From Deltaproteobacteria bacterium (GTDB lineage Bacteria > Desulfobacterota > GWC2-55-46 > DRQE01): a stretch of 64,000 nt of DNA. The stretch lies in NCBI GenBank assembly GCA_015492245.1, contig WGFM01000032.1, positions 6,231-70,230 of the forward strand, written 5' to 3'. Shown piece after piece: positions 4,826 through 29,071 of this stretch (its first letter is position 1; the number at the start of each line of letters is the position of its first letter). Under the pieces are notes generated by a model, which was not told where the DNA came from, did no database searches, and saw only the letters and a list, made by a program, of their open reading frames with translations. The position numbers and the translations under genes are program-made.

Positions 4826-4846
4826 CTCTCGGTAGTTTTTGTGGTT

Positions 4847-6151: not shown

Positions 6152-6284
6152 CTCCAGAATTTCCCCCTGTCTTCAAGGGATTTTAAGGTTTTGTATGGAA
6201 CTCATCGAGTGTTCTCTCACAACCCTGTCTGCATATATCCTGCCCTGAAAGGGTAGCTCCCCCATCTCTTCTTTGAGTCTTTAC

Positions 6285-8525
6285 TCATGTTATCACGGTA
6301 GCCGACTCGAGTATCCTGTTGAAGGTCTCGCTTGGACGCATTGCCTTCGAGGTCTTTTCTGGATCAGGTTGATAGTATCCTCCAAGGTCCTTCGGGCTTC
6401 CCTGTGTGGAGTCTATCTCCTCGAGTATCTTTTCCTCCTTTTCAGCAAGCTCTCGGGCTATCCTCGTGAACCGCTCCTTGAGTTCAGGGTCCTCCTCCTG
6501 TTCTGCCAGTGCCTCTGCCCAGTACAGTGCAAGGTAGAAGTGGCTCCCCCTGGTATCCAGCTCACCGCACTTTCTTGAAGGGGATCTGTTGTTATCGAGG
6601 AACTTTGCGTTTGCCCTGCTGAGAGTCTCTGAAAGAACCCTTGCCTTCATGTTGCCCATTACATTGCTCAGGTGTTCCAGTGATTCCGCCAGTGCCAGAA
6701 ACTCTCCGAGGGAATCCCACCTCAGATGTCCCTCCTCTACGAACTGCTGGACATGCTTTGGTGCAGAACCACCGGCACCTGTCTCGAAGAGCGCGCCACC
6801 ATTTATCAATGGCACGATGGAGAGCATCCTTGCACTGGTGCCGACTTCAAGTATGGGAAAGAGGTCAGTAATGTAATCACGCAGCACATTACCTGTAACC
6901 GATATGGTGTCCTTGCCCTCTCTCATCCTCTCTACAGAAAATCTCGTTGCCTCTGCAACGGACATGATACGAATATCAAGGCCCGTGGTGTCGTGTTCCT
7001 TCAGATACTCTTCGACCTTCTTCAAGAGTTCTATGTGGTGGGGCCTGTCCTCATCGAGCCAGAACACTGCAGGTGCGCCTGTGGCCCTTGCGCGTGTTAC
7101 AGCCAGTTTCACCCAGTCCCGTATGGCCAGGTCCTTCACGGTACATGCACGCCATATATCGCCCTCTTCGACCTCGTTCTCGAGTATGGTCCTTCCAGAG
7201 GAATCGACAAGCCGTATGGTTCCCTTTCCAGGGGACTGAAATGTCTTGTCATGTGAACCATATTCTTCTGCCTTCTTTGCCATGAGCCCCACATTGGAGA
7301 CACTCCCCATGGTTCTGGGATCAAAGGCACCGTATTTTTTGCAGTTGTCTATGGTCTCCTGATAGAGGCTTGCATAACTGTGATCTGGAATCACTGCCTT
7401 TGTATCATGGGGGCTGCCATCAGGACCCCACATCTTGCCACCATCACGAATCATTGGTGGCATGGATGCATCTATTATCACATTACTCGGCACATGGAGG
7501 TTAGTAATCCCCCTGGTAGAGTCCACCATGGCAAGTTCAGGACCCCTCCTGTAGACCCCCTCTATGTCAGCCTCGATTTCCTTTCTCTTCTCCTCTGGAA
7601 GGCTCTGTATCTTTGCATACAGTTCCCCGATACCGTTGTTGAGGTCAACCCCGAGTTCTTCTATCAGGTCGGCATGTTTCTCGATAACGTCCCTGTAATA
7701 CATCCTGACGCAATGACCAAAGATTATCGGATCAGAGACCTTCATCATCGTAGCCTTCAGGTGAAGGGAAAAGAGTATACCCATATCCCTCGTTTCATCT
7801 ATCTGTTCAGCCAGGAACTCCAGGAGGGCCTTCTTGCTCATAAATGTGGTATCAACTATCTCGCCGGCCTCCAGCAAGAGTTTCTCCTTCAGAACCGTTA
7901 CATTACCATTCTCATCGACGAACTCTATCCTTGCCTCTGTTGCCTCTGGTATGGTGGTTGATCTTTCGTTGGAACGAAAATCACCATCGCTCATCGTGGC
8001 AACATGTGTCTTCGAGTCGGCCTTCCATTCACCCATCTTGTGTGGGTTCTTCCTTACATACTGTTTGACAGCCTCTGCCACCCTGCGGTCAGAGTTTCCC
8101 TCCCTGAGGACCGGGTTTACGGCACTACCAAGAACCTTTGCATACCTTGCCTTAATCTCCCTCTCCTTGTCATCTTTTGGTTCCTCAGGGTAATCGGGCA
8201 CATTATAGCCCTGTTCCTGCAACTCTTTTATTGCTGCCTTGAGCTGGGGAACAGATGCACTGATGTTCGGCAGCTTGATGATATTTGCCTCGGGCTTCTT
8301 TACAAGTCTGCCAAGTTCAGCCAGATCATCGGGTATCCGCTGGTCCTCCCTCAGATACTCCGGAAAGGTTGCGATGACCCTGCCCGCAAGGGATATGTCT
8401 TTCAACTCTATCTCGATACCGCAACCATGTGTGAAACTCTTTATAATCGGCAACAGGGAATAAGTTGCCAGTGCAGGTGCCTCATCGGTCCTGGTCCAGA
8501 CAATCTTTGATACCTGTGATGTCAT
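6285..8525 (-). CDS. icd: Monomeric NADP-dependent isocitrate dehydrogenase (about 740-aa type)
   Basis: 746 aa. Collinear match to monomeric IDH (Azotobacter/Corynebacterium type): [57 protein letters not shown]...[30 protein letters not shown]. Confidence 0.92.
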
Positions 8526-16622: not shown

Positions 16623-17213
16623 CTACCCTTTCTTCTCCCCGATGCTGGAAGCATCCTCAGTAGAAAACCTTTCGATGAGCCTGTTCAGTCTATCCGTCGC
16701 ATGACCTGTGCCCCCTTCTTTTTCGAGTACCGAGCCAATGGCCTTCAACTCCCTGACAAGTTCCTCATGCAATGCCATATCCTGCTCCCTTCTCTGCTGC
16801 AGGTGGTCTGCGAGCCTGTTCACCACATCCTCGAGTTCTCTGAACTCGTCACCCTTCCTCAACCTCATGCGCACATGGAAGTTACCCTTAAGGAGTTCTT
16901 CCAGTGTTCTCTCAACCCTGTATACGGGCCCTGCAACCCTGTGGGATGCCAGTATAACCTGTATGCCCACAAGAAGGGCTATGACCACCACTGCCGGCCA
17001 CAGAACCTTATGGAGGCTCAATATGGCGTAGGATACCATTTCCTTCTCGTATATGCTCGTTGCAGACTGCAGTTCCATCCACAGGGGATAGAATATCAGC
17101 ATACCCAGTATGATGGAATATATGATAAGGGATATTACTATCGTAAGGGTTGCCTTTATCTGGTAGGCTGGTTTTATGAGTTTTTTCTTTCTGCGAAAGA
17201 AGGGATGGCCCAT
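16623..17213 (-). CDS. Membrane protein with two TM helices and HAMP-like linker domain
   Basis: Two TM helices then an amphipathic HAMP-like segment HRVAGPVYRVERTLEELLKGNFHVRMRLRKGDEFRELEDVVNRLADHL. No output domain. Confidence 0.5.
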   Translation of the reverse strand: MGHPFFRRKKKLIKPAYQIKATLTIVISLIIYSIILGMLIFYPLWMELQSATSIYEKEMVSYAILSLHKVLWPAVVVIALLVGIQVILASHRVAGPVYRVERTLEELLKGNFHVRMRLRKGDEFRELEDVVNRLADHLQQRREQDMALHEELVRELKAIGSVLEKEGGTGHATDRLNRLIERFSTEDASSIGEKKG

Positions 17214-17340
17214 GGTTAATTCCTCGTTACCATGAGATGATAAAACAATTGTCCCCCTCTGTCAAACATAAAAAAGCCGTCCCATCCTGCGGTTATTTGC
17301 CTGATGGAACGGCTGTATTCTTCGTCCCCGACAATGTGCC

Positions 17341-18498
17341 TTATCCCTTCATGGCCTTTATGAGCACCCCTGCAACCTCTGGCCTTGAGAACTCTGGCGG
17401 AGGTATCTCACCCTGTCTTAGCATCTCACGCACCTTTGTTCCAGAAAGGGTTATGTGGTCATGGGAGTCATGGGGGCAGGTCTTGTATGAAGCCATACCG
17501 CCACATCTTTTGCAGTAGAATGTGTAGTCGAAAAAGAGCGGAGTTATGCCTATCTTTTCGGGATCGAACTCGTCGAATATGTAGTGTGCATCGAATGTGC
17601 CGTAGTAGTTGCCCACACCTGCATGGTCTCTACCCACTATGAAGTGGGTGCACCCGTAGTTCTTGCGTATAAGGGCATGGAACACGGCCTCTCTGGGGCC
17701 TGCATACCTCATTGCCGCAGGAAACACAAGGAGCATCACCCTGTCCTTTGGATAGTAGTTCTCCATGAGGACCTCGTAGCAGCGCATCCTCACATCTGCA
17801 GGTATATCGTCTGCCTTGGTCTCACCCACAAGGGGGTGTATCATTAGTCCATCCACCACTTCGAGGGCACACTTCTGTATGTACTCGTGGGCACGGTGTA
17901 TGGGGTTACGGGTCTGAAAGCCCACCACCCTCTTCCATCCACGTTCCTGGAAGAGGGCCCTCGTCTGGGCAGGGTCAAGTCTGTATTGTTTGAAGTCCTC
18001 ATGTTCTGGCCTCTCTATGAGTGAGACCTTTCCACCAAGGAGCATATCTCCTGACTGGTAGAGTCTCTTTACCCCTGGGTGTGCCTCCTCCCTTGTGCCG
18101 TATACCTGGAGGGCCTCTTTATCCTTGTCGTGGGGGAATACCTCCTCTACCGCCATAAGGGCCAGTATGGTGCCATCTTCGCTGGTAAGGGCCACATCTT
18201 CGCCCTCTTTTATGGTGTCTGCGGTCTCTTTCGAGACCGCAAGGGTTACCGGAATGGTCCATGGCAGCCCACCTGCAAGGTGCATGGTGTCCATGGTGGA
18301 GTGGTAGTCCTCTTTTGTCATGAAGCCCTCGAGGGGGCTGTATGCACCTGTTGATATAAGCTCCAGATCAGATATTTCTTTTGGGCTGATGGCTATCTTC
18401 CTTAGCCCCTCTGCCCTCTTTCTCGCCTCCGTGAGCTCATCGCCTTTCAGCCTTCTGTCAACGAGCCTTCCCCCGTGGGGTGCAATGGTCTCTTTCAC
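17341..18498 (-). CDS. sat: Sulfate adenylyltransferase (ATP sulfurylase), homo-oligomeric type without APS-kinase domain
   Basis: 385 aa. [23 protein letters not shown] and PUA-like N-terminal domain are ATP-sulfurylase signatures. Confidence 0.9.
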
Positions 18499-18546
18499 CC
18501 TTTCGTACCTCCTTGAGTAGTCTTTGGTAGCAGAGTATACTCTGGC

Positions 18547-19242
18547 TTACTGGTGCAGCCCGCACTCGGTCTTTTCTTTGCCAGCCCATCTGCCTGCCCT
18601 GGGGTCCTCGCCTGGATGGACGGGCCTTGTGCAGGGCTGGCAGCCTATGCTGGGATAGTTCTGGTCATGGAGCACATTGTATGGAACATCGTTATCCTTT
18701 ATGTAGTTCCATACATCGTCGTATGTCCATGCAACAAGCGGGTTTATCTTTACAAGGCCGAACCTGTTGTCCCATGTAACAACCGGGGCATTCGCCCTTG
18801 TTGGGGACTGCTCTCTCCTTATACCTGTTATCCATGCCTTGAGGTCCTTGAGGGCTGCCTCGAGGGGGCGCACCTTTCTTATCCTACAGCACTCATCAGG
18901 GTTTGTCTCCCAGAGCTTTGGGCCATACTTCTCTTCCATCTCCTCGAGGGTAATTTCTGCCTCGTACTTTTCGGGCTGTATGCCGTACTTCTCCTTCACC
19001 CTCTCTATCACATCGTAGGTCTCCTTGAAAAGCAGCCCTGTATCGAGGTAGAAGATCCTGGCATCCTTCCTTATCTTGACGAGCATATCCAGGAGCACCA
19101 CATCCTCTGCACCGAAGCTGCATGCAAGTGATATGTGGGGATGAAAGTTGTCAAGCGCCCACCCGATTACTTCCTGTGGGGATTTGCCCTCGAAGGAATC
19201 ACTTGTCTTTTTCAGTTCTTCTTCTGTCCACACTTTCTCCAT
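18547..19242 (-). CDS. cysH: Adenylylsulfate (APS) reductase, thioredoxin-dependent CysH family with Fe-S Cys cluster
   Basis: PAPS_reduct fold (SFGAEDVVLLDM). CC (ECCRIRK) plus C-terminal CQPCT pattern typical of APS- rather than PAPS-reductases. Catalytic ECGLH tail. Confidence 0.85.
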   Translation of the reverse strand: MEKVWTEEELKKTSDSFEGKSPQEVIGWALDNFHPHISLACSFGAEDVVLLDMLVKIRKDARIFYLDTGLLFKETYDVIERVKEKYGIQPEKYEAEITLEEMEEKYGPKLWETNPDECCRIRKVRPLEAALKDLKAWITGIRREQSPTRANAPVVTWDNRFGLVKINPLVAWTYDDVWNYIKDNDVPYNVLHDQNYPSIGCQPCTRPVHPGEDPRAGRWAGKEKTECGLHQ

Positions 19243-19248
19243 CTTCTC

Positions 19249-19722
19249 CTATACCTCCTCTTCGTCGAATATTTCCACCCTGCAGGATACCCGCTCCTTC
19301 AACTCATCCATCATCGAAGAAGAGAAGTATCTCCTCAGGGTGGTTGTCTTCTTCCTTATAGTTATTATAAGCTCTATGGAATATTTTTCTATTGTTTTTT
19401 TGATGATCTCGATAAAATCTCCCTCTTCCATCAGGGGTTCGAACTCCACGCCCTCTTCCATGGCCTTTATCTGCACCTTGCCGAGTTCTTCATAGCCCCG
19501 TTGTCTGGACTCCTTCATTATGGCCTCTGACAGCTGTGTAGAGGGCTTGTCCCCTATGAAGCCCACATCTGAGAACCGCTCGAGCGCCTCTTCTGCAACG
19601 GCCCTGTCGAGTATGTAGAGGGCGTAGAGCATGGCACCCTCTTTCTTTGCGGTCCTTACCGCATGTTCTATTGCCCTCTCGGATCTTCTCGAGCCCGGTA
19701 TAACGAGCACTATCCCCTTCAC
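19249..19722 (-). CDS. Universal stress protein (UspA family)
   Basis: GTG start at 19720-19722 preceded by GGAGGG RBS. USP alpha/beta signature IVLVIPGSRRSERAIEHAV...IELIITIRKK. Overlaps stop of the upstream transporter by 4 nt. The track's 283-aa ORF is an out-of-frame read-through. Confidence 0.65.
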   Translation of the reverse strand: MKGIVLVIPGSRRSERAIEHAVRTAKKEGAMLYALYILDRAVAEEALERFSDVGFIGDKPSTQLSEAIMKESRQRGYEELGKVQIKAMEEGVEFEPLMEEGDFIEIIKKTIEKYSIELIITIRKKTTTLRRYFSSSMMDELKERVSCRVEIFDEEEV

Positions 19723-21152
19723 CTCAACCCTCCGAGCCCTATGAGCGGCCAGTAGAACCTTGCCACGAGGTTGAAGACCACCCAAGAGGTTATGCTCATT
19801 ATGACACCTGCCTTTGCCATGTCCCTGATCGTAAGGTATGTGGAGGATACAGCTATGGCGTTTGCAGGTGTCGAAAGGGGCAGTGTGAAGGCAAGCCCTG
19901 CGGGCACCGCTATGGCATAGGTTACGAGCACAGGGTCTATGTTGACCCCTCCGGTAAGCCCTATTCCCACAGGCAGAAGTATGGCAATCACTGCGGCATT
20001 GCTTATCCCCTCTGTAAAGAGCAGTGCCAGAAGGCTCAGTACCGCCACTGCAAGCCATGGCTCCACCATCCATCCACCTATCGTGGACTGGGCTATCCAC
20101 ATGGCGGCCCCACTTCTTTCAAGGGCAGTGCCCATTATTATCGCCCCTCCGTACATGAGTATTATACCCCAGTTCACATACTCCTCTATGTCCTTCCAGC
20201 GCACAAGCCTCAACACGAAAAGGGCCACCACCGCTGCAAGGGACACCGTGGCAAGCCCAACCCTTGCGCCAAGGGTTGCCCATGCCACCACGGTAACCAC
20301 AAGGATTATGCCCACCATGTATTCATTGTAACCTATCTTTCCCATGGATTGTATACGCCTTTTGAGCACCTCGTGTGCCTTCTCCACACTGTCTATGTCC
20401 ATGGAGAACAACCTTGTAAGAAGAAAGTAACCAAACAGCAGCATTATCACCACAACGGGAAAGACCCCTACCGAGTAGCTTATGAAGTCTATGGTCCTGC
20501 CCGTGGTCTCCTTCAGTATGCCCAGGGCAAGGGGCACCCTTGCACCACCGAGGAATGTGGCGATCCCTCCTATGACGCAACCCCAGGCGAGCGAGAGAAA
20601 GAGCATCTTCGCATAGGTGGACCTACCTGGTCTCAGCCCAAGGCTCTTTGCGATCTCGAACACTATGGGAAATAGCATGGCAGCCACCGCATGTTCTGAC
20701 ATGAAGCAGGAAAGCAGCGCCGCCAGGAGGTATATGCTCAGAAGAAGCCTTGCCGGTGAACTACCGAATCTATCCATTATAACGAGGGCGATCCTGTTGG
20801 AAAGCCCTGAATGCATCACCGCACCTGCCAGTATGAAGGCACCAAGGATGAAGAATACCGCCTCGTTGCCGAAGAGCCCGTATACCTCTTCTTTTGGCAG
20901 TATGTCCACAAGCGGCACAAGTGCTATGGCAAAAAGGCTGGTTATGGCAAGGGGTATTATGTTGGACACCCACAGTATAAGACACAGGATGAACACCGCT
21001 ATGGCGTTCTTGCCCTCAGGGGTAAGCCCCTCGGGGGTGGGCATCTTTATGAGGTAATAGAACCCTGCCGCAAGGAGCACAAAGAAGGCAGGCCGAAGCC
21101 CCTTCAAGACAAGCAGCACCCATATGGACCTTCTGTCTATCTCTACAGCCAT
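19719..21152 (-). CDS. DASS/SLC13-family anion:sodium symporter (putative sulfate permease)
   Basis: 477 aa, about 12-14 TM helices, duplicated-repeat architecture with SNxA/TNxA-like hairpin tips (ISNAAVIAILLP). Genomic context with usp-cysH-sat. Confidence 0.7.
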   Translation of the reverse strand: MAVEIDRRSIWVLLVLKGLRPAFFVLLAAGFYYLIKMPTPEGLTPEGKNAIAVFILCLILWVSNIIPLAITSLFAIALVPLVDILPKEEVYGLFGNEAVFFILGAFILAGAVMHSGLSNRIALVIMDRFGSSPARLLLSIYLLAALLSCFMSEHAVAAMLFPIVFEIAKSLGLRPGRSTYAKMLFLSLAWGCVIGGIATFLGGARVPLALGILKETTGRTIDFISYSVGVFPVVVIMLLFGYFLLTRLFSMDIDSVEKAHEVLKRRIQSMGKIGYNEYMVGIILVVTVVAWATLGARVGLATVSLAAVVALFVLRLVRWKDIEEYVNWGIILMYGGAIIMGTALERSGAAMWIAQSTIGGWMVEPWLAVAVLSLLALLFTEGISNAAVIAILLPVGIGLTGGVNIDPVLVTYAIAVPAGLAFTLPLSTPANAIAVSSTYLTIRDMAKAGVIMSITSWVVFNLVARFYWPLIGLGGLR

Positions 21153-21208
21153 CTCTCTGTAACCCTGTTTTGAAGGAAAGGTAAGGAGGTTGCCCCTCTC
21201 TTATATTG

Positions 21209-22402
21209 TCAATCCTCTTCTATCTCCTTTACCCTGAGCTTTCGCCTCAGGGTGGAGAGCCCCCAGGCGGTCTTGAGTCCCAGCCTTGTGCCATAGAACT
21301 TTTCGATTAGCCCGCTTATCCCACCAGTTTTCTCACCTGCAATGAGTCTACCCTCTATGGGTGTGGTTACAACACTTATATCCCTCATCCAGTTCATGTT
21401 TATCCCCTTCTTCTTTACCGCCCTGTAGAGGTGTCTGTATATGGGTATTATCACCTCTGCATTAAGGGGTTCTATCCTCAGGGCCCCACCAGGGCGTGGC
21501 CTGTATATGGGCAATATGGGCACCACGCCCATGTCTGTGAGAAAGTCTATGCCCATGCATGTGGAGCCAGGGGGTTCAAGCCCCACTATGAGGTGTGAGG
21601 CAACGGTGCCATTTGGAAATATGTCTGCCGCATATCTCAATGCCTCTATGTATCTTTTTCTGCCCACAAACCTTGCCCTGCCCGGGCAGAGTGCCTCGAA
21701 GAGCTCCTCGTCGAATATCTCGAGGTTGTAGAGCAGGGCATCTGCCCCAAGGGCATATGTCCTGTCTATCCAGTGATTGTTCTTCGGTGGAAGGGCTTCC
21801 ACTGCAACAAGGCAGTTGAACCTCTTCTTTATGGCCTCTATGTAGGGTGTGAGGAACCCTATGCCACCATCGTCGTCCTCGGTAAAGCCCGTGGAAAGGT
21901 ATATTATCTCTGACACTCCTTCCTCAAGCACTGCCGAGACGACCTCCACCACCTCGTCCACTGTATGGGTTCTGCCCGGTCTTTCATCGTATCCACCGGC
22001 ACAATAGCTGCACTCCACCTTCTTTTCGAAGAACACACACTCCTTCTTGGGTAGAATCAGCACATAGCTCCCGTGCACCGTGGCTATCTCGCTGTAGGGT
22101 GTGCCCTCTCCTGTCGTTCTCGAGAGAAACTCGGGCATTTTTACAGGCCTTACCTCCACCTCACCTGTGGTGTCTGATATGAGCCACCTTTCTCCCGCCT
22201 TCTTGAGAACATATGGAGAATCTCTGGTGAACTCCTCTCCGCAGGGCACATTCACAGGGGAACCCCCTGGAAGCACTATGTCCACTCCCTCACCTGCCCT
22301 GCCGTAGAAGGCAAGAGGGCCATCTTCCCGGGGAAGCCTTATCCCCCTGAGCATGAGGTCTATCTTCAATGTGCCGGGGTTGTTGAGGTAGCTCTTTTTC
22401 AT
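21209..22402 (-). CDS. Uncharacterised radical-SAM-like protein with non-canonical Cx8Cx2C motif and N-terminal about 110-aa extra domain
   Basis: 397 aa. KKECVFFEKKVECSYCAGGYDER cluster loop; GxIxGxxE-like IVGLEPPG; TIM-barrel-like periodicity. Its start abuts the stop of the E1 gene (22402/22403). Confidence 0.5.
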   Translation of the reverse strand: MKKSYLNNPGTLKIDLMLRGIRLPREDGPLAFYGRAGEGVDIVLPGGSPVNVPCGEEFTRDSPYVLKKAGERWLISDTTGEVEVRPVKMPEFLSRTTGEGTPYSEIATVHGSYVLILPKKECVFFEKKVECSYCAGGYDERPGRTHTVDEVVEVVSAVLEEGVSEIIYLSTGFTEDDDGGIGFLTPYIEAIKKRFNCLVAVEALPPKNNHWIDRTYALGADALLYNLEIFDEELFEALCPGRARFVGRKRYIEALRYAADIFPNGTVASHLIVGLEPPGSTCMGIDFLTDMGVVPILPIYRPRPGGALRIEPLNAEVIIPIYRHLYRAVKKKGINMNWMRDISVVTTPIEGRLIAGEKTGGISGLIEKFYGTRLGLKTAWGLSTLRRKLRVKEIEED

Positions 22403-23224
22403 CTAAGTTTCACAACTCGAGCGTTGCAGCTCGCAACTCTCCTCGTATGTTACAAGCTCTTTTATGGATGGCTCCTTGCCACAGAGCCTGCACCCGGGGT
22501 CTTTCCTTACCCTGACTTTTCTGAAGTCCATCCTCAATGCATCGAATATGAGGAGCCTTCCCGAAAGCCCCTCGCCTATCCTGAGTATCTCCTTTATGGT
22601 CTCAACAGCCTGCAACACCCCTATGACCCCTGCAAGGGCACCGAGTACGCCTGCCTCCTGGCAGCTTGGCACAAGCCCTGGTGGAGGGGGCTCTGGATAG
22701 AGACACCTGTAACATGGCGAGCCCTCATGGGGCTTGAAGACCGAAAGCTGCCCCTCGAAACGGAACATGCTGCCAGATACAAGAGGCCTATGCTCGAAAA
22801 AGGCCGCATCGTTTACGAGAAACCTTGTAGGGAAGTTGTCCGAGCCATCGAGCACAATATGGAACCCCCTTATGACCTCCCTTATGTTCTCCCTTGTGAG
22901 CCTCTCGTTGTAGGTTATAACCTCTACATCAGGGTTTAACTCCTCTATGGTCTTCTTTGCAGAGAGTGCCTTCGGGGTGCCAACCCTGGGGGTGGAGTGT
23001 ATTATCTGACGCTGAAGGTTGCTCAGATCCACCCTGTCTCCATCGGCGATCCCCACGGTGCCAACCCCTGCAGCTGCAAGATACATGAGCGCAGGCGAAC
23101 CAAGCCCACCTGCACCAACCACAAGGACCCTGGCATCGAGCAACTTTCGCTGCCCCCTGCCACCAACCTCTGGAAGTATGATGTGCCTGGAATACCGCTC
23201 TATCTGCTCCTCTGTAAAATCCAT
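22403..23224 (-). CDS. MoeZ/MoeB/ThiF-family E1-like sulfur-carrier-protein adenylyltransferase
   Basis: RYSRHIILPEVGGRGQRKL, nucleotide loop VVGAGGLGS, two CxxC pairs (CYRC...CRLC). Confidence 0.85.
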   Translation of the reverse strand: MDFTEEQIERYSRHIILPEVGGRGQRKLLDARVLVVGAGGLGSPALMYLAAAGVGTVGIADGDRVDLSNLQRQIIHSTPRVGTPKALSAKKTIEELNPDVEVITYNERLTRENIREVIRGFHIVLDGSDNFPTRFLVNDAAFFEHRPLVSGSMFRFEGQLSVFKPHEGSPCYRCLYPEPPPPGLVPSCQEAGVLGALAGVIGVLQAVETIKEILRIGEGLSGRLLIFDALRMDFRKVRVRKDPGCRLCGKEPSIKELVTYEESCELQRSSCET

Positions 23225-23297
23225 TTAAACCTGCCTCCTTACACCACAAAAGATAAGAACGAATGCTAAATATACCCTCTGTTCTCCTGAAAAGGAT

Positions 23298-23702
23298 CTA
23301 TTTCTCGGCTATTTCTTCTTCTACAAACACATCGGCATCATCCAGCCTCCAGCACCTGACCTCAGTCTCTCTCCCGCCCCTTACTCCCACGATGAGGTAG
23401 AAGTATTCGGGCCATGCCCTGGTTCTGTCGAACTCAGATGGTTCTGCCGGGTGATCCGGGTGTGAGTGGTATATGCCGATTACCGCAAGCCCCCTTTTTG
23501 CTGCCTCTTTTTCCACCATGAGGAATTCCCGTGGGTCTATCTCGTAGCGGTCCTGCGCCCTTTCGGTGTTGATATTTTTAACCTTCACCGCCTCTAACAC
23601 CACCCCTTCCTTACCCAGAAGCAGTCCGCAGCATTCATTGGGGTAAGAGGCCCTTGCATTCTCACGCACCTTTTCTGCTGCATCCCTGACTATGCGAAGC
23701 AT
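23298..23702 (-). CDS. JAMM/MPN+ metalloprotease (Mec+/CysO-hydrolase-like)
   Basis: 134 aa with canonical JAMM motif E...HSHPDHPAEPSEFD (HxHx7Sx2D). Confidence 0.85.
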   Translation of the reverse strand: MLRIVRDAAEKVRENARASYPNECCGLLLGKEGVVLEAVKVKNINTERAQDRYEIDPREFLMVEKEAAKRGLAVIGIYHSHPDHPAEPSEFDRTRAWPEYFYLIVGVRGGRETEVRCWRLDDADVFVEEEIAEK

Positions 23703-23712
23703 CTTTCCGTAG

Positions 23713-24672
23713 TCAATCCTCCCACACCCTTGTGGAGAGGTACTTGTCTCCGCCGTCCGGGAACATGACGACTATGAGCCCCTCTTTGAGTGTCCTTGCA
23801 AGCCTCAATGCCCCGAGTAGAGCTGCCCCTGAGGACTGGCCTGCAAGTATGCCCTCTTCTTTTGCAAGCCTTCTTGTCATCTCGTAGGACTCTTCGGTGT
23901 CTGCCGGTATCTTATCGTCCAGTTCTTCCTCGTGGTATATGCCAGGCACGATGCTCGATGCCATGTGTTTAAGGCCCTCGAGCCCGTGAAGGGGGCTATC
24001 GGGCTCAACTGCTATGACCTTTATATCCTTTCTGAACTCCTTCAATCTTCTTCCAGTGCCCATTATGGTTCCCCCTGTGCCTATGCTTGCCACAAAGTGG
24101 GTTATTCTGCCCTCTGTCTGTGCGATTATCTCTGGCCCGGTGGTCTCGTAATGGGCAAGGGGGTTGGAGGGGTTGTTGTATTGATCAAGCTTGCAGTATT
24201 TCTCGGGGTTGTCCACATATAGCTTCCAGCAAAGCCTTATGGCCCCATCGGAGCCCTCCAAGGGGTCAGAGAATATCACCTTAGCCCCGTAGGCGCTGAG
24301 CATCTTCTTTCGCTCCTCACTCACATTGCCTGGCACCACAAGCTCCACCCTGTAGCCCTTGTGTGCGCCTATCCATGCATAGGCAATGCCTGTGTTGCCG
24401 GATGTTGAATCGAGTATTATCTTGTCCTTCGTAAGACGGCCTGCCTTCTCGGCGTCCTCTATCATCTTCAGTGCTGGCCTGTCCTTTACAGAACCCCCTG
24501 GATTGTAGCCCTCGAGCTTGGCATATATCTCCACCCCGGGAGGTATATCCCTGGTTACATTCCTTATATTGACGAGCGGGGTGTTGCCAACAAGGTCTAT
24601 AACAGAGCCCACCGCCTCCCTTACCCCTCCTGACCTTGTCCGGTAGTCCGCCCCTGCAACCCTTGTATCCAT
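23713..24672 (-). CDS. cysM: Cysteine synthase, CysM/CysK family (likely carrier-protein-thiocarboxylate-dependent)
   Basis: PLP-lysine motif GGSVKDR, GNTGIA, SIGTGGT. Start reassigned to the internal ATG at 24670-24672 (MDTRVAG...), 6 nt after RBS AGGGAGG. Confidence 0.85.
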   Translation of the reverse strand: MDTRVAGADYRTRSGGVREAVGSVIDLVGNTPLVNIRNVTRDIPPGVEIYAKLEGYNPGGSVKDRPALKMIEDAEKAGRLTKDKIILDSTSGNTGIAYAWIGAHKGYRVELVVPGNVSEERKKMLSAYGAKVIFSDPLEGSDGAIRLCWKLYVDNPEKYCKLDQYNNPSNPLAHYETTGPEIIAQTEGRITHFVASIGTGGTIMGTGRRLKEFRKDIKVIAVEPDSPLHGLEGLKHMASSIVPGIYHEEELDDKIPADTEESYEMTRRLAKEEGILAGQSSGAALLGALRLARTLKEGLIVVMFPDGGDKYLSTRVWED

Positions 24673-24722
24673 ACAAAAACCTCCCTGAAGTAAAGACAAA
24701 ATACCTTACTAACTTAGTCAAG

Positions 24723-24750
24723 TTTATAATAGATTAGTATTTTTGTCAAG
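24723..24750 (-). promoter_or_regulatory. Internal sigma70-type promoter TTGACA-N16-TATAAA upstream of cysM
   Basis: Minus strand reads TTGACAaaaatactaatctatTATAAAct, within the 88-nt gap between the NIL gene stop and cysM. Confidence 0.4.
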
Positions 24751-24787
24751 AACTTTAACAAAAAAAGGCACTTACGGTGGGAGGGTC

Positions 24788-25027
24788 TTACTCTATTATA
24801 TCGAGTTCTATGGGTTCCACCTTAACGCCTTTGTCGATGAAGAACTGTATTGCCCTGCCTATCTCCTCTTCGCTACCCTCGAGCTCAAGGGCCACAAGCC
24901 CCATGGTATCTGACACACATGCCTGCCGTATGTTGGTAACCACACGGAAGCGCTTGCCCGCCTCGTATATGAGGGGTTCCTTCACGAGCTCCCTCGGGTA
25001 TGTAAGGTAGACCCTTTTTTTCAACAC
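24788..25027 (-). CDS. Stand-alone NIL-domain protein (MetN C-terminal-like; sulfur-amino-acid-associated)
   Basis: 79 aa. PLIYEAGKRFRVVTNIRQACVSD.MGLVALELEGSEEEIGRAIQFFIDKGVKVEPIE matches the RF.V..NI..A...G.M.LEL.G....A...L...V.VE NIL pattern. Confidence 0.55.
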   Translation of the reverse strand: MLKKRVYLTYPRELVKEPLIYEAGKRFRVVTNIRQACVSDTMGLVALELEGSEEEIGRAIQFFIDKGVKVEPIELDIIE

Positions 25028-25302
25028 ATGCCTCCTGCTATTGCAGGAATTATGGAGAGCTCATCACCCTCTTTGAGCTCTGTATCCAGGTTGAGCTTGA
25101 ACCGTATGTCCTCATCGTTCACATAGAGGTTTACGAACTTTCTTATAGAGCCGTCTTCCTCGCAGATGCGCTCTTTTATACCTGGATACCTCTTTTCGAG
25201 GTCATCTATGACCTCTCTTACTGTTGTGCCCTCTGCAGTAACCTCGTCCTTGCCTTCTGTAAGTTTCCTCAGTGGTGTGGGTATCCTTACCTTTACAGCC
25301 AT
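25021..25302 (-). CDS. MoaD/ThiS/CysO-family sulfur carrier protein with C-terminal GG followed by 2-residue extension (..AIAGG-MC)
   Basis: 93-aa beta-grasp. C-terminal DELSIIPAIAGGMC resembles MoaD ...VAIIPPVSGG but with MC after the di-glycine. Confidence 0.75.
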   Translation of the reverse strand: MAVKVRIPTPLRKLTEGKDEVTAEGTTVREVIDDLEKRYPGIKERICEEDGSIRKFVNLYVNDEDIRFKLNLDTELKEGDELSIIPAIAGGMC

Positions 25303-25332
25303 ACCTTGAGTTACCTCCTTTTTGATGGGGTT

Positions 25333-25575
25333 TTATTCGCCTCTTTCTATAAGGAGCCTGAAGTGGTCGTCCTCTTTCTTCACATCTATTATCCTGTGTC
25401 CCTCTTCTTTTATGCTCTTTGGCACATTCTGGATGGGCTCTCCACTGTCGAGCACCACCTCGAGCACCTCGCCCTTCTCCATGCTCTCGAGCTTGAGCTT
25501 GGTCTTAACGAAGTTCATGGGGCAGAGCACCCCTCTCAGGTCAAGGGTATCTACCGGTCTTACTTCTGCTGACAT
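25333..25575 (-). CDS. tusA: TusA/SirA-like sulfurtransferase
   Basis: 80 aa with LDLRGVLCPMNFVKTK active-site Cys motif (CPxP variant). Confidence 0.7.
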   Translation of the reverse strand: MSAEVRPVDTLDLRGVLCPMNFVKTKLKLESMEKGEVLEVVLDSGEPIQNVPKSIKEEGHRIIDVKKEDDHFRLLIERGE

Positions 25576-26534
25576 GCTGCCTCCTTTGCTCCGAGCACCC
25601 TGTCGCCGAAGACATCTTTCATGAATTCAAGGTACTTATCGACCCCCACGCGTTCCAGGGTCTTTCCAATCCTCTCACCCCTCATGCCATTTGCCATATA
25701 CCACTCTATGGTCTTCTCGATTACCTCTGCCACCTTCTCGTCAGGCACAAAGAGTGCCACCTCTTCTGCCTCCATGGGCCATCTACCGTGCTTTCCACCA
25801 ACCCGTACGAGGTGTCCATAGCGCTTTGCCCTCCAGGCACCTGTTGGGCATGCACGGATGCAATCGCCACAGTAGATGCATTTTTCAGGATAGTAGATGG
25901 GTTTACCCGTATCGGGATCACTCTCTATGGCGTCCTCCTTACATGCCTCGGCACATATGGTGCAGCCCGTGCATGTGGGTTCCTCCCACTCGGGCTCCAC
26001 CACACCCTGAAAGCCCAGGTCCATCTCTCTGGTTCTTGCACAATCTATCGGGCAGCCAGAGAAGGATATTTTGAACTTGTGGTGTGTGGGTGTGCCGAAG
26101 AACCTTTCATCCACCATCTTTGCAAGGGCCTGGGTGTCGGTAAGCCCATTCGGGTTGTACTCACAGCCGCCACAGGCAGTGGGCACCCTCACCCTTGGCC
26201 CGCAGGAGGCAACCTTCCAGCCTATGGCCTCAAGCTCCTTCACAAGCTGGGGGAACTCCTTGTAGTCCACATAGAGTATCTCTATGGATTGGCGAAAGCT
26301 CAGGTGTATGACGCCCTTCTTGCTGTACTTGTGGGCTATCTTCGAGATTTCTATGAGCTTATCTGTTGGAACCCTTCCCCCAGGGCATCGAAGCCTCACG
26401 GTGAAAAGATCACGCTGGCGCTGTTTTATAAAGCCACCTGTCTTGAGCTCGCCAAAATCGAGTTTTTTTGTCTCTCCGTCGAGGCTTACCTCGACCCTTG
26501 TGGTCTTATCCTCAATGAAACGGTCCATGGACAC
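25560..26534 (-). CDS. Small sulfite/nitrite-reductase-family protein (siroheme/4Fe-4S-binding half-domain) with inserted 2x[4Fe-4S] ferredoxin domain; assimilatory-type low-MW sulfite reductase / AsrC-like
   Basis: NiR/SiR ferredoxin-like half domain. Siroheme-cluster cysteines SCGPRVRVPTACGGC...SGCPIDCA. Ferredoxin motifs CTGCTICAEAC and CIYCGDCIRACP. Confidence 0.7.
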   Translation of the reverse strand: MSMDRFIEDKTTRVEVSLDGETKKLDFGELKTGGFIKQRQRDLFTVRLRCPGGRVPTDKLIEISKIAHKYSKKGVIHLSFRQSIEILYVDYKEFPQLVKELEAIGWKVASCGPRVRVPTACGGCEYNPNGLTDTQALAKMVDERFFGTPTHHKFKISFSGCPIDCARTREMDLGFQGVVEPEWEEPTCTGCTICAEACKEDAIESDPDTGKPIYYPEKCIYCGDCIRACPTGAWRAKRYGHLVRVGGKHGRWPMEAEEVALFVPDEKVAEVIEKTIEWYMANGMRGERIGKTLERVGVDKYLEFMKDVFGDRVLGAKEAACQQK

Positions 26535-26599
26535 ATCTCTCCTTTCAAAAAGATGTAGACAACTATGATAACAAAAAACCCCCTGGGGGTAAAGGAGGA

Positions 26600-27853
26600 T
26601 TAGCCCTCCAGGGCATATTTTTCATCCATCTTCTTTACCAGCTCATCGAAGTCCTTGAGGCTTGCGTTTATGGTGGGCACCTCTTCGAGTCTTCCATGGA
26701 GTGCCTCCTGGGTCTTGAGCCCGTTGCCTGTTACGGAGACCACTATGGACTCGTCCCTGGGGATTCGGCCCTGTTCTATGAGCTTCTTTGTAACCCCCAG
26801 GGTAACCCCACCGGCTGTCTCTGCAAATATGCCCTCCCTTTCTGCCAGAAGCTTTATCGCCTCTACGATTTCCTCATCCGACACATCCTCTGCCCATCCG
26901 CCACTCTCTCTTATGGTCTTCGCAGAGTAGTAGCCATCGGCAGGGTTGCCTATCGCAAGGGATTTTGCAATGGTGTTGGGTCTTACAGGCTCTATGAGCT
27001 CTTTACCCCTCTTTACCGCTGTAACTATGGGTGCACAGCCCGTTGCCTGTGCCCCGTAGACCTTCGCATCCATGTTGTCCACAAGCCCGAGCATATGAAG
27101 CTCTCTGTATGCCTTCCACACCTTCGTTATGAGCGAGCCCCCTGCCATTGGCACAACCGTGTGTCTGGGCAGCCTCCAGCCCAGCTGTTCTGCAATCTCG
27201 AAGCCGAAGGTCTTCGAGCCCTCGGCATAATAGGGCCTTATGTTTATGTTCACGAATGCCCAGCCGTATTTGCCCGCAATCTCACTGCACAGGCGGTTTA
27301 CCTCATCGTATGTGCCCCTTATACCCACGACCCTTGCCCCGTATACGAGGGTTCCCACAATCTTCGTGGGCTCGAGATCGAAGGGTATGAACACATAGCT
27401 CTCCATACCACAGGCAGTGGCATTTGCAGCCACAGAGTTCGCAAGGTTGCCTGTGGACGCACAGGAGGCCACCTTGAAGCCCATCTCCAGTGCCCTGGAG
27501 ATGGCAACAGAGACCACCCTGTCCTTGAAAGAGAGGGTGGGATAGTTTACCGCATCGTTCTTTATGTAGAGCTCCTTTACACCCAGGGCCTTCTCAAGGT
27601 TTCTCGCCCTTATAAGGGGCGTAAAACCAACTTCTCTGCCCACCGTGGGCTCTCCATCTATGGGTAGAAGCTCCCTGTAGCGCCACATGTTCTGTGGCCT
27701 CTTCTCTATGGTCTCTTTCGACAGGCTCTTCTTGATTTTACCATACTCGTAGACCACCTCGAGGGGACCAAAGCAGTACTCGCACACATGCAAAGCCTTC
27801 CTGGGATACTCCCTGCCACACTCTCTGCATCTCAGTGCCTTCATAAAGCCCAT
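26600..27853 (-). CDS. thrC: Threonine-synthase-family PLP enzyme with N-terminal zinc ribbon; candidate phosphohomoserine sulfhydrylase given SAM-riboswitch control
   Basis: CRECG...CEYC ribbon and PLP-lysine motif TLSFKDR, ThrC fold. Directly downstream of a SAM-I riboswitch. Confidence 0.75.
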   Translation of the reverse strand: MGFMKALRCRECGREYPRKALHVCEYCFGPLEVVYEYGKIKKSLSKETIEKRPQNMWRYRELLPIDGEPTVGREVGFTPLIRARNLEKALGVKELYIKNDAVNYPTLSFKDRVVSVAISRALEMGFKVASCASTGNLANSVAANATACGMESYVFIPFDLEPTKIVGTLVYGARVVGIRGTYDEVNRLCSEIAGKYGWAFVNINIRPYYAEGSKTFGFEIAEQLGWRLPRHTVVPMAGGSLITKVWKAYRELHMLGLVDNMDAKVYGAQATGCAPIVTAVKRGKELIEPVRPNTIAKSLAIGNPADGYYSAKTIRESGGWAEDVSDEEIVEAIKLLAEREGIFAETAGGVTLGVTKKLIEQGRIPRDESIVVSVTGNGLKTQEALHGRLEEVPTINASLKDFDELVKKMDEKYALEG

Positions 27854-27879
27854 CTATTCATCCTCCCTTGTTTTTTGGA

Positions 27880-28078
27880 TAAAAAAAACCTCTTCCTTAC
27901 TTTTTCCCTTTGAAGTTAAGAAGAGGTCTTAACGACTCTTCTTATCTTCCAGGAGCCCTTTAACTGGAAGACTCCTGCTGGAATTAGCACCGGGCGTTTC
28001 ATCCCCCAAGGGGGATAAAACCGGTTGCTGTGGCTTCACGGGGCCAGTTCCCTCCACCACTCTGGATAAGAAGATTAT
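27880..28078 (-). promoter_or_regulatory. SAM-I (S-box) riboswitch: aptamer (about 27936-28076) plus intrinsic terminator (27881-27927)
   Basis: Minus strand reads UCUUAUCCAGAGUGGUGGAGGGAACUGGCCCCGUGAAGCCACAGCAACC...GGUGCUAAUUCCAGCAG...GGAAGAUAAGAAGAG, matching S-box conserved positions. Then hairpin GACCUCUUC...GAAGAGGU + UUUUUUUU, then RBS GGGAGGA and the thrC ATG. Confidence 0.85.
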
Positions 28079-28189
28079 CCCTGTTCAATTGTTAGAGAAT
28101 CTTATAATACACTATGGAAGGATTGTCAAGGAAAAATAAAGGGTTCAGGACAATCAAAGGTAGAACCTCCTCTGTGTAGCCACAAATTT

Positions 28190-29071
28190 CTAAGTGTTAT
28201 CGAGCAGGAACTCCTTGAACTTCCTTGTTGCAGGTGAAGGACTTCTCTTTGAATGTGTTATTATATGGAAGTATCGTTCTATGCCGACACCCTTTATCTT
28301 GACCTCCTTGAGCATCTTTCTTCTCACATGCTCACATATGGCAAGTCTGGACATGAAGGCAAGCCCGAGCCCGCTCTTTATTGCACCCACAAGGGCCTGT
28401 GTGGAGCCCATCTCTGCCACTATGTTGAGTCCTTCAGGCTCTATGCCTGCCTCTCTTATGGCCCTTTCTGTCTCCATCCTGGTTCCAGAGCCCCTTTCCC
28501 TTACCACAAGTGGTATATGGGAAAGCTCTTCCCTTGAGACCCTCGATTTCTTGAAGGAAGAAGGTGCTGCCAGCACTATCTCGTCGGATACAAACCTTTC
28601 CAGCAATAGATGTTTATCCTTCACCACCGAGCCCACCACCCCTATGTCCACCCTTCCCTCTGACACCATGTGGCTTACCTTTTCTGTATCCGCTATGGTT
28701 AGTGATGGAAAGACCCCCGGGTACAGTCTTCTGAACTCTGCTATCCTCTGTGGCAGTATGTACTCCCCTGGTATGGTGCTCGCCCCTATTGTGAGTGTAC
28801 CCTGCACCGAGCCGCCGAACTCTTTCAGGGACTGGCTTGCCTCCTCTTTGAGTCTTACAATCTCCTTGGCGTATCTGTAGAGTATGGCTCCCTCCTTGGT
28901 GGGCACCACCTTTCTGCCGAGTCTGTCCAGCAGTCTTGTGGTGAGGGTTTCCTCAAGGGTTCTTATGTGAATACTTATGGTGGGTTGGGTAAGATTCAGA
29001 GACTCTGCAGCCTGGGAAAATCCTCCTTCCTCAACAACTCTGCAGAATATCTCAAGAAGTCTCAACTCCAC
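28190..29071 (-). CDS. LysR-family transcriptional regulator
   Basis: N-terminal wHTH MELRLLEIFCRVVEEGGFSQAAESLNLTQPTISIHIRTLE, C-terminal LysR substrate-binding domain. Confidence 0.85.
   Translation of the reverse strand: MELRLLEIFCRVVEEGGFSQAAESLNLTQPTISIHIRTLEETLTTRLLDRLGRKVVPTKEGAILYRYAKEIVRLKEEASQSLKEFGGSVQGTLTIGASTIPGEYILPQRIAEFRRLYPGVFPSLTIADTEKVSHMVSEGRVDIGVVGSVVKDKHLLLERFVSDEIVLAAPSSFKKSRVSREELSHIPLVVRERGSGTRMETERAIREAGIEPEGLNIVAEMGSTQALVGAIKSGLGLAFMSRLAICEHVRRKMLKEVKIKGVGIERYFHIITHSKRSPSPATRKFKEFLLDNT

Follow-up and report, generated by a model that had tools for sequence, protein, structure and literature searches.

A 64,000-nt stretch of contig WGFM01000032.1 from a Deltaproteobacteria bacterium (assembly GCA_015492245.1; hereafter the window) carries a block of 13 co-oriented minus-strand genes headed by an S-adenosylmethionine (SAM) riboswitch. 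Our analysis points to this block being a lineage-conserved, modular island leading from sulfate to protein thiocarboxylate and organised in roughly three to four transcription units, in which one small sulfur carrier would serve both a CysM-type cysteine synthase and a MetM-type homocysteine synthase, a reading to which we give a probability of about 0.72. In the direction of transcription the genes encode a ThrC-like pyridoxal phosphate (PLP) enzyme, a small sulfite reductase (SiR)-like protein, TusA, a ThiS/MoaD-fold carrier, a NIL-domain protein, CysM, a JAMM protease, an E1 adenylyltransferase, a radical-SAM protein, a DASS transporter, a USP-domain protein, CysH and ATP sulfurylase (Sat) (Table 1). 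Profile searches found all 13 open reading frames in place, with Pfam and NCBIfam families that bear out every gene assignment of the initial annotation, which had been made from the nucleotide letters without database searches. The places of its reading frames hold as well, and only two starts need revision: CysM more likely begins at ATG 24672 than at TTG 24699, and the USP gene starts at GTG 19722. Intergenic distances within the block run from -16 to +115 nt, with overlaps at SiR/TusA, ThiS/NIL and DASS/USP and with E1 and the radical-SAM gene abutting.

The arrangement is strongly conserved. All names that sources attach to the 384 detectable relatives of the radical-SAM protein point to uncultured 'Deltaproteobacteria/Thermodesulfobacteriota'. 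A scan based on this protein, keeping one genome per species, gave 74 loci, which were compared with the 13 window proteins by tblastn. Gene order was colinear and co-oriented in 73 of the 73 loci that hold the radical-SAM gene, at 52-87% identity of its product, so that the gene-neighbourhood comparison proposed in the initial annotation speaks clearly for co-conservation. The complete 13-gene set occurs in 24 loci, and contig ends cut short most of the others. The immediate upstream neighbour of the radical-SAM gene is E1 wherever this could be tested (57/57 loci), and its immediate downstream neighbour is the DASS gene in 60 of 61. Independent look-ups that started from radical-SAM and NIL homologues returned an identical 13-gene map with Pfam labels.

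Departures from the common layout fall at a few places. The ThrC-to-NIL module was not found within 7 kb of the CysM-to-sat genes in six low-GC relatives (L061, L063, L064, L067, L068 and L069), a chromate-transporter gene is inserted exactly at the NIL/CysM junction of L082 (10494-11723), and the SiR-like gene is missing from two loci (L057 and L059), one of which also lacks TusA. Some relatives hold only a distant homologue at the CysH position (35-42% identical; e.g., L010, L015, L022, L038) or at the Sat position (38-43%; e.g., L011, L016, L017, L037), which suggests in-place replacement by another type of reductase or sulfurylase.

The carrier is central to the proposed pathway, and its closest solved relatives are CysO proteins, namely 4n6e_B (94.6 bits), which we take to be the CysO that serves the 2-thiosugar enzyme BexX, and Mycobacterium tuberculosis CysO (3dwg_C, 81.8 bits). 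Nearly all of the roughly 40 carriers read from relatives end in PAIAGG plus a few variable residues, one to three in most, while one stops at GG. Two residues (MC) follow Gly-Gly in the window, so the carrier must be trimmed. The JAMM protease has an intact metal site as read from its sequence, with HSHPDHPAEPSEFD (HxHx7Sx2D) and the upstream Glu. Separately, carrier Cys47 (25164-25162, minus strand) is invariant in 40 sequences, and the usual carrier mechanism gives it no role.

The match of the E1 to the MoeZ and MoeB-rhodanese models is confined to their adenylation part (MoeZ positions 15-274 of 392), and Pfam gave no match to a rhodanese domain in the protein. The initial label of MoeZ is therefore withdrawn for this protein of 273 residues. 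Its zinc cysteines (171/174/245/248) and Cys188 are conserved in 100% of relatives. CysM passes the cysteine synthase model TIGR01136 (356.7 bits; cut-off 344.15) and falls just under that of TIGR01138 cysM (381 vs. 394). A residue of its basic loop was considered as a discriminator between O-phosphoserine and O-acetylserine and dropped, the Lys-His found here vs. Arg-Arg in Salmonella CysM not being discriminating.

The best solved relative of the SiR-like protein is Fsr, the F420-dependent sulfite reductase (7np8, 145 bits), whose catalytic C-terminal half aligns with residues 33-309. The protein keeps the CX3C motif (161/165) and the two-cluster ferredoxin insert, and all of its 14 cysteines, including those of CX2C (121/124), CX3C and the two ferredoxin motifs, are 100% conserved in 36 sequences. 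TusA has its active-site Cys18, within CP[IMT]NF, conserved in 97% of relatives; its best NCBIfam match is the selenium-linked YedF, below threshold (60 vs. 79 bits). The assignment of CysH to the adenosine 5'-phosphosulfate (APS) reductase type stands, as TIGR02055 is passed (266 bits; cut-off 235) and the 3'-phosphoadenosine 5'-phosphosulfate reductase model is not (222 vs. 254); its CC (118/119), CxxC (201/204) and C227 are 100% conserved. Sat scores 590 bits with NF003166, for which the cut-off is 387.

Two members of the block have no obvious place in amino-acid synthesis. The radical-SAM protein matches the radical-SAM family models and the radical-SAM barrel fold, and among related loci it is exclusive to this cluster. 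Its motif needs correction: the canonical CX3CX2C is absent and an invariant C122-X8-C131-X2-C134 is found instead. Fold searches place it just in the broad LipA/BioB/HydE/ThiH/PylB group. Groups with CX8CX2C appear as uncharacterised megaclusters in RadicalSAM.org (PMC9477430), and a literature search on CX8CX2C radical-SAM proteins returned a generic mention and nothing more specific. The NIL start overlaps the carrier stop (GTG TTG A), which suggests translational coupling of the two. The NIL protein resembles MetN only faintly, in the C-terminal domain that binds methionine (3dhx, E=0.035). Its homologues, reached by a word-index search that extended to the same lineage only, are named in some sources after the DUF39 homocysteine system. 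In methanogens and Desulfovibrio an unrelated homocysteine route, that of DUF39, depends on NIL/ferredoxin proteins (PMC5764234), which makes the recurrence of NIL beside homocysteine synthesis notable. We guess that the radical-SAM protein works together with the E1 to mobilise sulfur or to handle the carrier, and that NIL, tied to the carrier, serves as a small ligand- or partner-binding subunit; if the block contains new chemistry, it is most likely to be found in these two.

These identities allow a pathway to be proposed in which, unlike the gene identities, the conservation and the RNA and promoter features, every step is drawn from homology. Sulfate would be imported by the DASS transporter, with the USP protein as a likely regulatory partner, and converted to APS by Sat; the Fe-S APS reductase would then yield sulfite, which the small siroheme enzyme of Fsr C-terminal (Fsr-C) type would reduce to sulfide, while TusA may keep sulfur as a persulfide. 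The carrier would be made with its short tail past Gly-Gly and trimmed by JAMM, after which the rhodanese-less E1 would adenylate the exposed glycine and sulfide or TusA persulfide would convert it to the thiocarboxylate. CysM would add this thiocarboxylate to the aminoacrylate formed from O-phosphoserine or O-acetylserine, and following an S-to-N acyl shift JAMM would free cysteine and regenerate the carrier. The MetM-type enzyme would combine the same carrier thiocarboxylate with O-phosphohomoserine into carrier-homocysteine, again released by JAMM.

A doubtful though serious alternative is a closed sulfur relay, without release of free sulfide, in which the strictly co-conserved extras would be working parts. 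The Fsr-C-type reductase would here pass reduced sulfur to TusA, and TusA, replacing the rhodanese domain, would load the E1-bound carrier adenylate. The radical-SAM protein with its CX8CX2C motif would perform a new sulfur-mobilising or carrier-modifying step akin to LipA/BioB chemistry, and NIL would be a methionine-, homocysteine- or SAM-sensing subunit gating which of the PLP enzymes receives the thiocarboxylate.

The regulation of the block begins at its leader. The SAM-I riboswitch is the sole Rfam family in the whole window (RF00162; gathering score 44.4, model positions 1-108 complete), and relaxing the threshold to E<=1 brought up no further Rfam RNA within 17200-28300. The idea that the large gaps hold another riboswitch or known RNA was dropped as well, none being found at E<=1 in the window and none in seven relatives. 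The leader folds into the four-way aptamer followed directly by a 17-bp hairpin and U8 (z = -4.7), and, as read from the sequence, AGAUAAGAAGAG in the 3' strand of P1 is complementary to CUCUUCUUAAC in the 5' arm of the terminator hairpin, an arrangement that would allow an alternative antiterminator pairing. By this reading of its sequence the leader is an ordinary SAM-off transcription attenuator. Its promoter-like site lies about 30 nt upstream of the riboswitch, inside the 118-nt gap after a LysR gene, and was not listed by the consensus scanner owing to a G in position 6 of its -10 hexamer. A SAM riboswitch precedes the ThrC-like gene in 7/7 relatives tested, at 53-91 bits. The LysR gene itself (28190-29071, minus strand) passes the NCBIfam model 'selenium metabolism-associated LysR' (304 vs. 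250 bits); a role as cluster regulator was dropped, as related loci gave no LysR hits and it is not a conserved neighbour.

How far the influence of this riboswitch extends is a question that the relatives help to answer. In these, neighbouring genes stand farthest apart at ThrC/SiR (median 202 nt) and NIL/CysM (median 262 nt), while the median spacing falls to -7 nt at ThiS/NIL (43 relatives) and to -1 nt at DASS/USP (64 relatives). After NIL, 25 of 42 relatives carry a strong GC-rich hairpin followed by T7-9 (hairpin <= -8 kcal/mol plus T-run), compared with one to six loci at most other junctions. Enrichment of terminators is also seen behind the radical-SAM gene (29/74) and behind sat (13/34), and to a lesser degree behind the JAMM gene (15/57). 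The window has a terminator-like hairpin after its own radical-SAM gene at 21183-21198 (minus strand), and its sat terminator went unlisted by the scanner because of a loop of 16 nt. The terminators after the radical-SAM gene suggest that DASS, USP, CysH and Sat form a transcription unit of their own. A real terminator follows the ThrC-like gene in only 6/35 relatives, so this gene is not clearly monocistronic, and a terminator at that point was dropped as a general feature.

Internal promoter signals are seen as well. Relatives share TTTTcTGGTAtcATA, which resembles an extended -10, ahead of the SiR-like gene, and nearly all of them have TTGACA-N5-ACTAAGGTATTATAAACTTGA-N5-TTACTAAGGTATT downstream of the NIL terminator. 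The latter, the CysM promoter, is of sigma-70 type and contains two direct copies of the 11-mer ACTAAGGTATT, one between -35 and -10 and the other just past -10. The copies are 28 bp apart in all loci that have both, with the sole exception of L035 (34 bp); examples are found in L007 (7354-7392), L012 (7049-7087) and L074 (7249-7287). The exact 11-mer is confined to the NIL/CysM junction, in 23 loci, and with one mismatch allowed this junction holds 58 copies vs. 14 in the remaining 0.97 Mb. Copies in the window lie at 24728-24738 (two mismatches) and 24700-24710 (one mismatch). The duplicated element looks like a putative operator of a sulfur or cysteine regulator.

The internal terminators, the CysM promoter and operator, the six relatives with CysM-to-sat only and the insertion in L082 thus divide the block into about three to four units, and the region between leader and last gene is not free of terminators and promoters as a single operon would demand. 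The initial annotation was right to place a SAM-I riboswitch at the head of 13 co-oriented genes; its further claim, that all of them stand under this one riboswitch, is not supported, in view of these internal signals and of the modular presence in relatives. That claim would have SAM control sulfate uptake, reduction and the synthesis of cysteine and homocysteine jointly from the riboswitch promoter, and the co-orientation and short gaps of the window genes, the weakness of the window hairpins after ThrC and NIL, which makes read-through possible, and the presence of a single Rfam element would all agree with it. We consider it unlikely, given the canonical terminators of relatives, the conserved promoter signals before CysM and the SiR-like gene, the CysM-to-sat loci without the riboswitch module and the foreign gene at the NIL/CysM junction; shutting off cysteine synthesis at high SAM would also make little physiological sense. 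The control exerted by the riboswitch probably covers the ThrC-like gene and, where transcription reads through, extends no farther than NIL. At high SAM the aptamer would close, the terminator would form and the homocysteine branch would be switched off, perhaps together with extra carrier expression. On the most parsimonious view, the CysM and sulfate units are regulated separately, the former by a putative repressor acting on the duplicated ACTAAGGTATT operator, while an internal promoter would keep the carrier module on and available to cysteine synthesis. Evidently, a riboswitch followed by many co-oriented genes should not be taken as one regulon without comparative checks.

The homocysteine branch depends on the identity of the ThrC-like enzyme. 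This protein is about 40% identical to solved threonine synthases and retains the PLP lysine (SFKDR motif) and the CASTGN loop, but NINIRPYYAEGSKT stands where those enzymes have NSVNPHRLEGQKT: the window protein reads NINIRPYY and 2zsj and 1uim read NSVNP(Y/H)R, followed by (L/I)EGQKT in the solved enzymes. The arginine of NP[HY]R is presumably the phosphate-site residue, Arg160 in Thermus thermophilus; the motif fails in the window protein, and tyrosine takes the place of the arginine across its clade. This clade was delimited by searching 1.84 billion representatives and aligning the relatives: roughly 45 of the closest full-length ones (41-58% identical, including Micromonosporaceae and archaeal metagenome-assembled genomes) share RP[YF]Y, whereas more distant sequences and the solved enzymes have NP.R. 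The full clade motif is N[VI]N[LI]RP[YF]YAEG[SA]KT (residues 202-215; 27250-27210, minus strand) vs. NS[VI]NP[HY]R[LI]EGQKT in solved threonine synthases.

The window protein is 51% identical to Micromonosporaceae proteins of equal length, belonging to an actinobacterial clade with a SAM riboswitch. An example is the cultured actinomycete Micromonospora coriariae (LT607412.1, L084), where the riboswitch (5855-5990) lies directly before a gene of the RP[YF]Y clade (6001-7287) annotated as 'threonine synthase'. No carrier gene adjoins the clade gene in the two actinobacterial loci examined, M. coriariae included, so that carrier adjacency is not universal in the MetM clade; in the window the ThrC-like gene shares its module with the CysO-type carrier, 1.3 kb farther downstream. 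According to the GapMind account (bioRxiv 10.1101/2024.10.14.618325), MetM of Streptomyces albulus is homologous to ThrC, forms homocysteine out of O-phosphohomoserine with the thiocarboxylate of MetO, needs Mec and MoeZ, and is often wrongly annotated as threonine synthase; metM of this species is reported in PMC12172450 to lie behind a SAM riboswitch. We propose that the ThrC-like enzyme is likely a MetM-type thiocarboxylate-dependent homocysteine synthase, orthology having been judged by proxies.

Were this gene instead an ordinary threonine synthase, or of some other ThrC-family activity, the carrier would make only cysteine and there would be no homocysteine branch. Such a reading could draw on the resemblance to solved enzymes, on profile scores (TIGR00260 is passed and NF006050, or PRK08197, is missed narrowly at 302.7 vs. 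303) and on a cyanobacterial homologue for which PMC12172450 reports threonine synthase and deaminase activity. It is nevertheless very unlikely, as the element preceding the gene here, in the relatives and in Micromonospora is a SAM riboswitch and not a threonine signal, the phosphate-site arginine (NPHR) is lost across the clade, the gene stands beside a sulfur carrier, and MetM is, according to GapMind, often mislabelled as threonine synthase. Cysteate synthase was also tried for this gene and rejected (63 bits; cut-off 325). Most unlikely, too, is that the carrier, E1, JAMM and radical-SAM proteins make a non-proteinogenic thio-compound (a thio-cofactor, thiosugar or thiocarboxylate siderophore; cf. 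QbsE/PDTC and BexX/CysO) from precursors given by CysM and sulfate reduction, for although the carrier's best solved match is the presumed BexX partner and amino-acid synthesis leaves a cluster-exclusive radical-SAM protein of the LipA/BioB/ThiH/HydE fold group unexplained, the cluster holds no biosynthetic scaffold genes (such as NRPS, glycosyltransferases or thiazole synthase), both PLP enzymes belong to types that synthesise amino acids, the riboswitch indicates methionine and the context is housekeeping.

Several observations weigh against the carrier-sharing island as we propose it. The MetM orthology rests on the 51% identity, the Micromonospora riboswitch and the RP[YF]Y signature, all of them proxies, and the ThrC-like protein passes the threonine-synthase cut-off of TIGR00260 by a wide score (285.8 vs. 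167.1). CysM is nearer to the Salmonella and Escherichia coli CysM (253 bits) than to the thiocarboxylate-using enzyme of M. tuberculosis (209 bits) and free sulfide or thiosulfate could be all that it needs. In the SiR-like protein CX2C replaces the CX5C of Fsr, and its score with AsrC is 137 bits, far below the cut-off of 324. The window itself shows a weak terminator after NIL (z = -1.6) and a degenerate first operator copy, though it retains the CysM promoter and the second copy. Finally, the proposed pathway assigns no necessary role to the radical-SAM, NIL or USP proteins despite their strict co-conservation.

Table 1. Features of the 13-gene block and its control elements, in the direction of transcription (positions are those of the window)
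Feature	Position	Strand	Basis
Promoter-like site before riboswitch: TTGACA, 17 nt, TATAAG	28101..28129	-	read from sequence
SAM-I riboswitch aptamer (S box)	27939..28072	-	RF00162, 83.8 bits
Riboswitch expression platform: intrinsic terminator hairpin and U8	27877..27930	-	minimum-free-energy fold
ThrC-fold PLP enzyme with N-terminal CxxC..CxxC zinc ribbon	26600..27853	-	PALP 230 bits; TIGR00260 286 bits
Short hairpin CCCCC-A-GGGGG and T6, overlapping extended -10-like TGTTATCAT before SiR-like gene	26565..26598	-	
Small siroheme-type SiR-like protein with inserted 2x[4Fe-4S] ferredoxin domain	25560..26534	-	NIR_SIR 97 bits, NIR_SIR_ferr 57 bits, Fer4
TusA-family sulfurtransferase, 16-nt overlap with end of SiR-like gene	25333..25575	-	PF01206, 82 bits
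CysO-type ThiS/MoaD-fold sulfur carrier, pro-form ending ...AGG-MC	25021..25302	-	PF02597, 73 bits
Stand-alone NIL-domain protein, 78-79 aa	24788..25027	-	PF09383, 48 bits
Weak long imperfect hairpin then T7, where relatives have canonical terminator	24755..24832	-	-22 kcal/mol, z = -1.6
Promoter TTGACA, 17 nt, TAAACT and two ACTAAGGTATT-like putative operator copies before CysM	24700..24749	-	
CysM-type cysteine synthase, fold-type II PLP enzyme	23713..24672	-	TIGR01136, 357 bits
JAMM/MPN+ metalloprotease, Mec+/HcyD-like	23298..23702	-	Prok-JAB, 100 bits
ThiF/MoeB/UbaA-type E1 adenylyltransferase, 273 aa	22403..23224	-	PF00899, 273 bits
Variant radical-SAM protein, CX8CX2C; start abuts E1 stop (TAG ATG)	21209..22402	-	Radical_SAM 36 bits; NF045502 variant_rSAM 172 bits
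DASS-family anion:Na+ symporter, presumed sulfate importer	19719..21152	-	PF00939 214 bits; TIGR00785 250 bits
USP-domain protein, 4-nt overlap with DASS stop	19249..19722	-	PF00582 (Usp), 40 bits
Thioredoxin-dependent Fe-S-type APS reductase (CysH)	18547..19242	-	TIGR02055, 266 bits
ATP sulfurylase (Sat), homo-oligomeric type	17341..18498	-	NF003166 590, PF01747 344, PUA_2 193 bits
Terminator after sat: AGCCGTTCCATC..GATGGGACGGCT and T6, closes block	17269..17314	-	read from sequence

Each module of the block has a precedent, and the likeness to the CysO/CysM/Mec, HcyS/HcyD/HcyF and MetM systems pointed out in the initial annotation is genuine. Thiocarboxylate-dependent cysteine synthesis by CysO, CysM and Mec+ with MoeZ is said to have been established in M. 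tuberculosis in the work of Burns in 2005 and O'Leary in 2008. The block shares with that system a CysO-type carrier, a CysM-family PLP enzyme, a JAMM protease and a ThiF-type E1; it differs in an E1 without rhodanese, in a carrier tail past GG that needs trimming, in a CysM nearer the enteric type and in being joined to sulfate reduction, a MetM-type enzyme, TusA, NIL and the radical-SAM protein. Krishnamoorthy and Begley, whose work PMC5764234 cites, reportedly described in 2011 the HcyS-HcyD-HcyF-MetY-Sir set of Wolinella succinogenes, where a thiocarboxylate pathway is joined to sulfate-reduction genes. Common to both, at the sequence level for the block, are a carrier extension removed by a metalloprotease, an E1 without rhodanese and clustered sulfite reductase and sulfate-activation genes. 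The homocysteine enzyme is, however, of ThrC fold here (type II, MetM-type) and MetY there (a fold-type-I O-acetylhomoserine sulfhydrylase), and the block adds a small Fsr-C-type sulfite reductase and a CysM branch. The cluster has no gene of MetY type (Cys_Met_Meta_PP), leaving only PALP enzymes as candidates.

The MetM-MetO system of S. albulus (Hasebe 2024, as described in GapMind 2026 and PMC12172450) likewise has a ThrC homologue behind a SAM riboswitch and next to a sulfur carrier, and needs a Mec-type protease and an E1. Set against that account, the block has one carrier gene beside both the CysM and the MetM-type gene, clusters the protease, the E1 and the sulfate-to-sulfide route with them, and adds NIL, TusA and the radical-SAM protein. 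The pathway of DUF39 (COG1900) with NIL/ferredoxin, as PMC5764234 presents it, also ties NIL genetically to homocysteine synthesis in anaerobes; the block differs from it in having no DUF39 protein, a free-standing NIL without ferredoxin domain and unrelated chemistry (O-phosphohomoserine and thiocarboxylate). The SiR-like protein shares with the Fsr C-terminal half (PDB 7np8/7npa) the CX3C siroheme-cluster motif, the ferredoxin insert and the alignment already given, while it lacks the F420H2-dehydrogenase half, differs in the CX2C and is encoded by a gene overlapping that of TusA.

The searchable library returned no description of the full combination. As far as that library shows, a fixed layout of 13 genes that sets a single carrier between CysM and a MetM-type enzyme, and that also includes an Fsr-type reductase, TusA, a free NIL and a cluster-exclusive radical-SAM protein with CX8CX2C, is undescribed. 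The novelty suggested in the initial annotation holds for this full set, but not for the linkage of thiocarboxylate chemistry to sulfate reduction, for which Wolinella is the precedent, or for a SAM riboswitch ahead of metM, for which S. albulus is.

The genes flanking the block in the window (plsX-fabHDG-fabF, rpiB, glyA, ATP-citrate lyase and monomeric isocitrate dehydrogenase) are housekeeping genes and therefore indicate a chromosomal location rather than a mobile element. Both ATP-citrate lyase subunits and the monomeric isocitrate dehydrogenase lie at 2102-8525 (minus strand). Their presence suggests an autotroph using the reductive tricarboxylic acid cycle, a lifestyle that would suit an organism obliged to make all its sulfur amino acids.

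If the proposed reading is true, a single small carrier feeds both sulfur amino acids across a whole uncultured lineage, and everything from sulfate import to product release is encoded in 10.7 kb, which would turn the block into a compact and transplantable system for testing thiocarboxylate-dependent synthesis of cysteine and homocysteine. The MetM route, a recent find, would then reach well past the actinomycetes, and RP[YF]Y vs. NP[HY]R would be a signature parting MetM-type enzymes from true threonine synthases in annotation. It would also flag the CX8CX2C radical-SAM protein, the free NIL protein and TusA as components tied to the cluster strictly enough to be testable.

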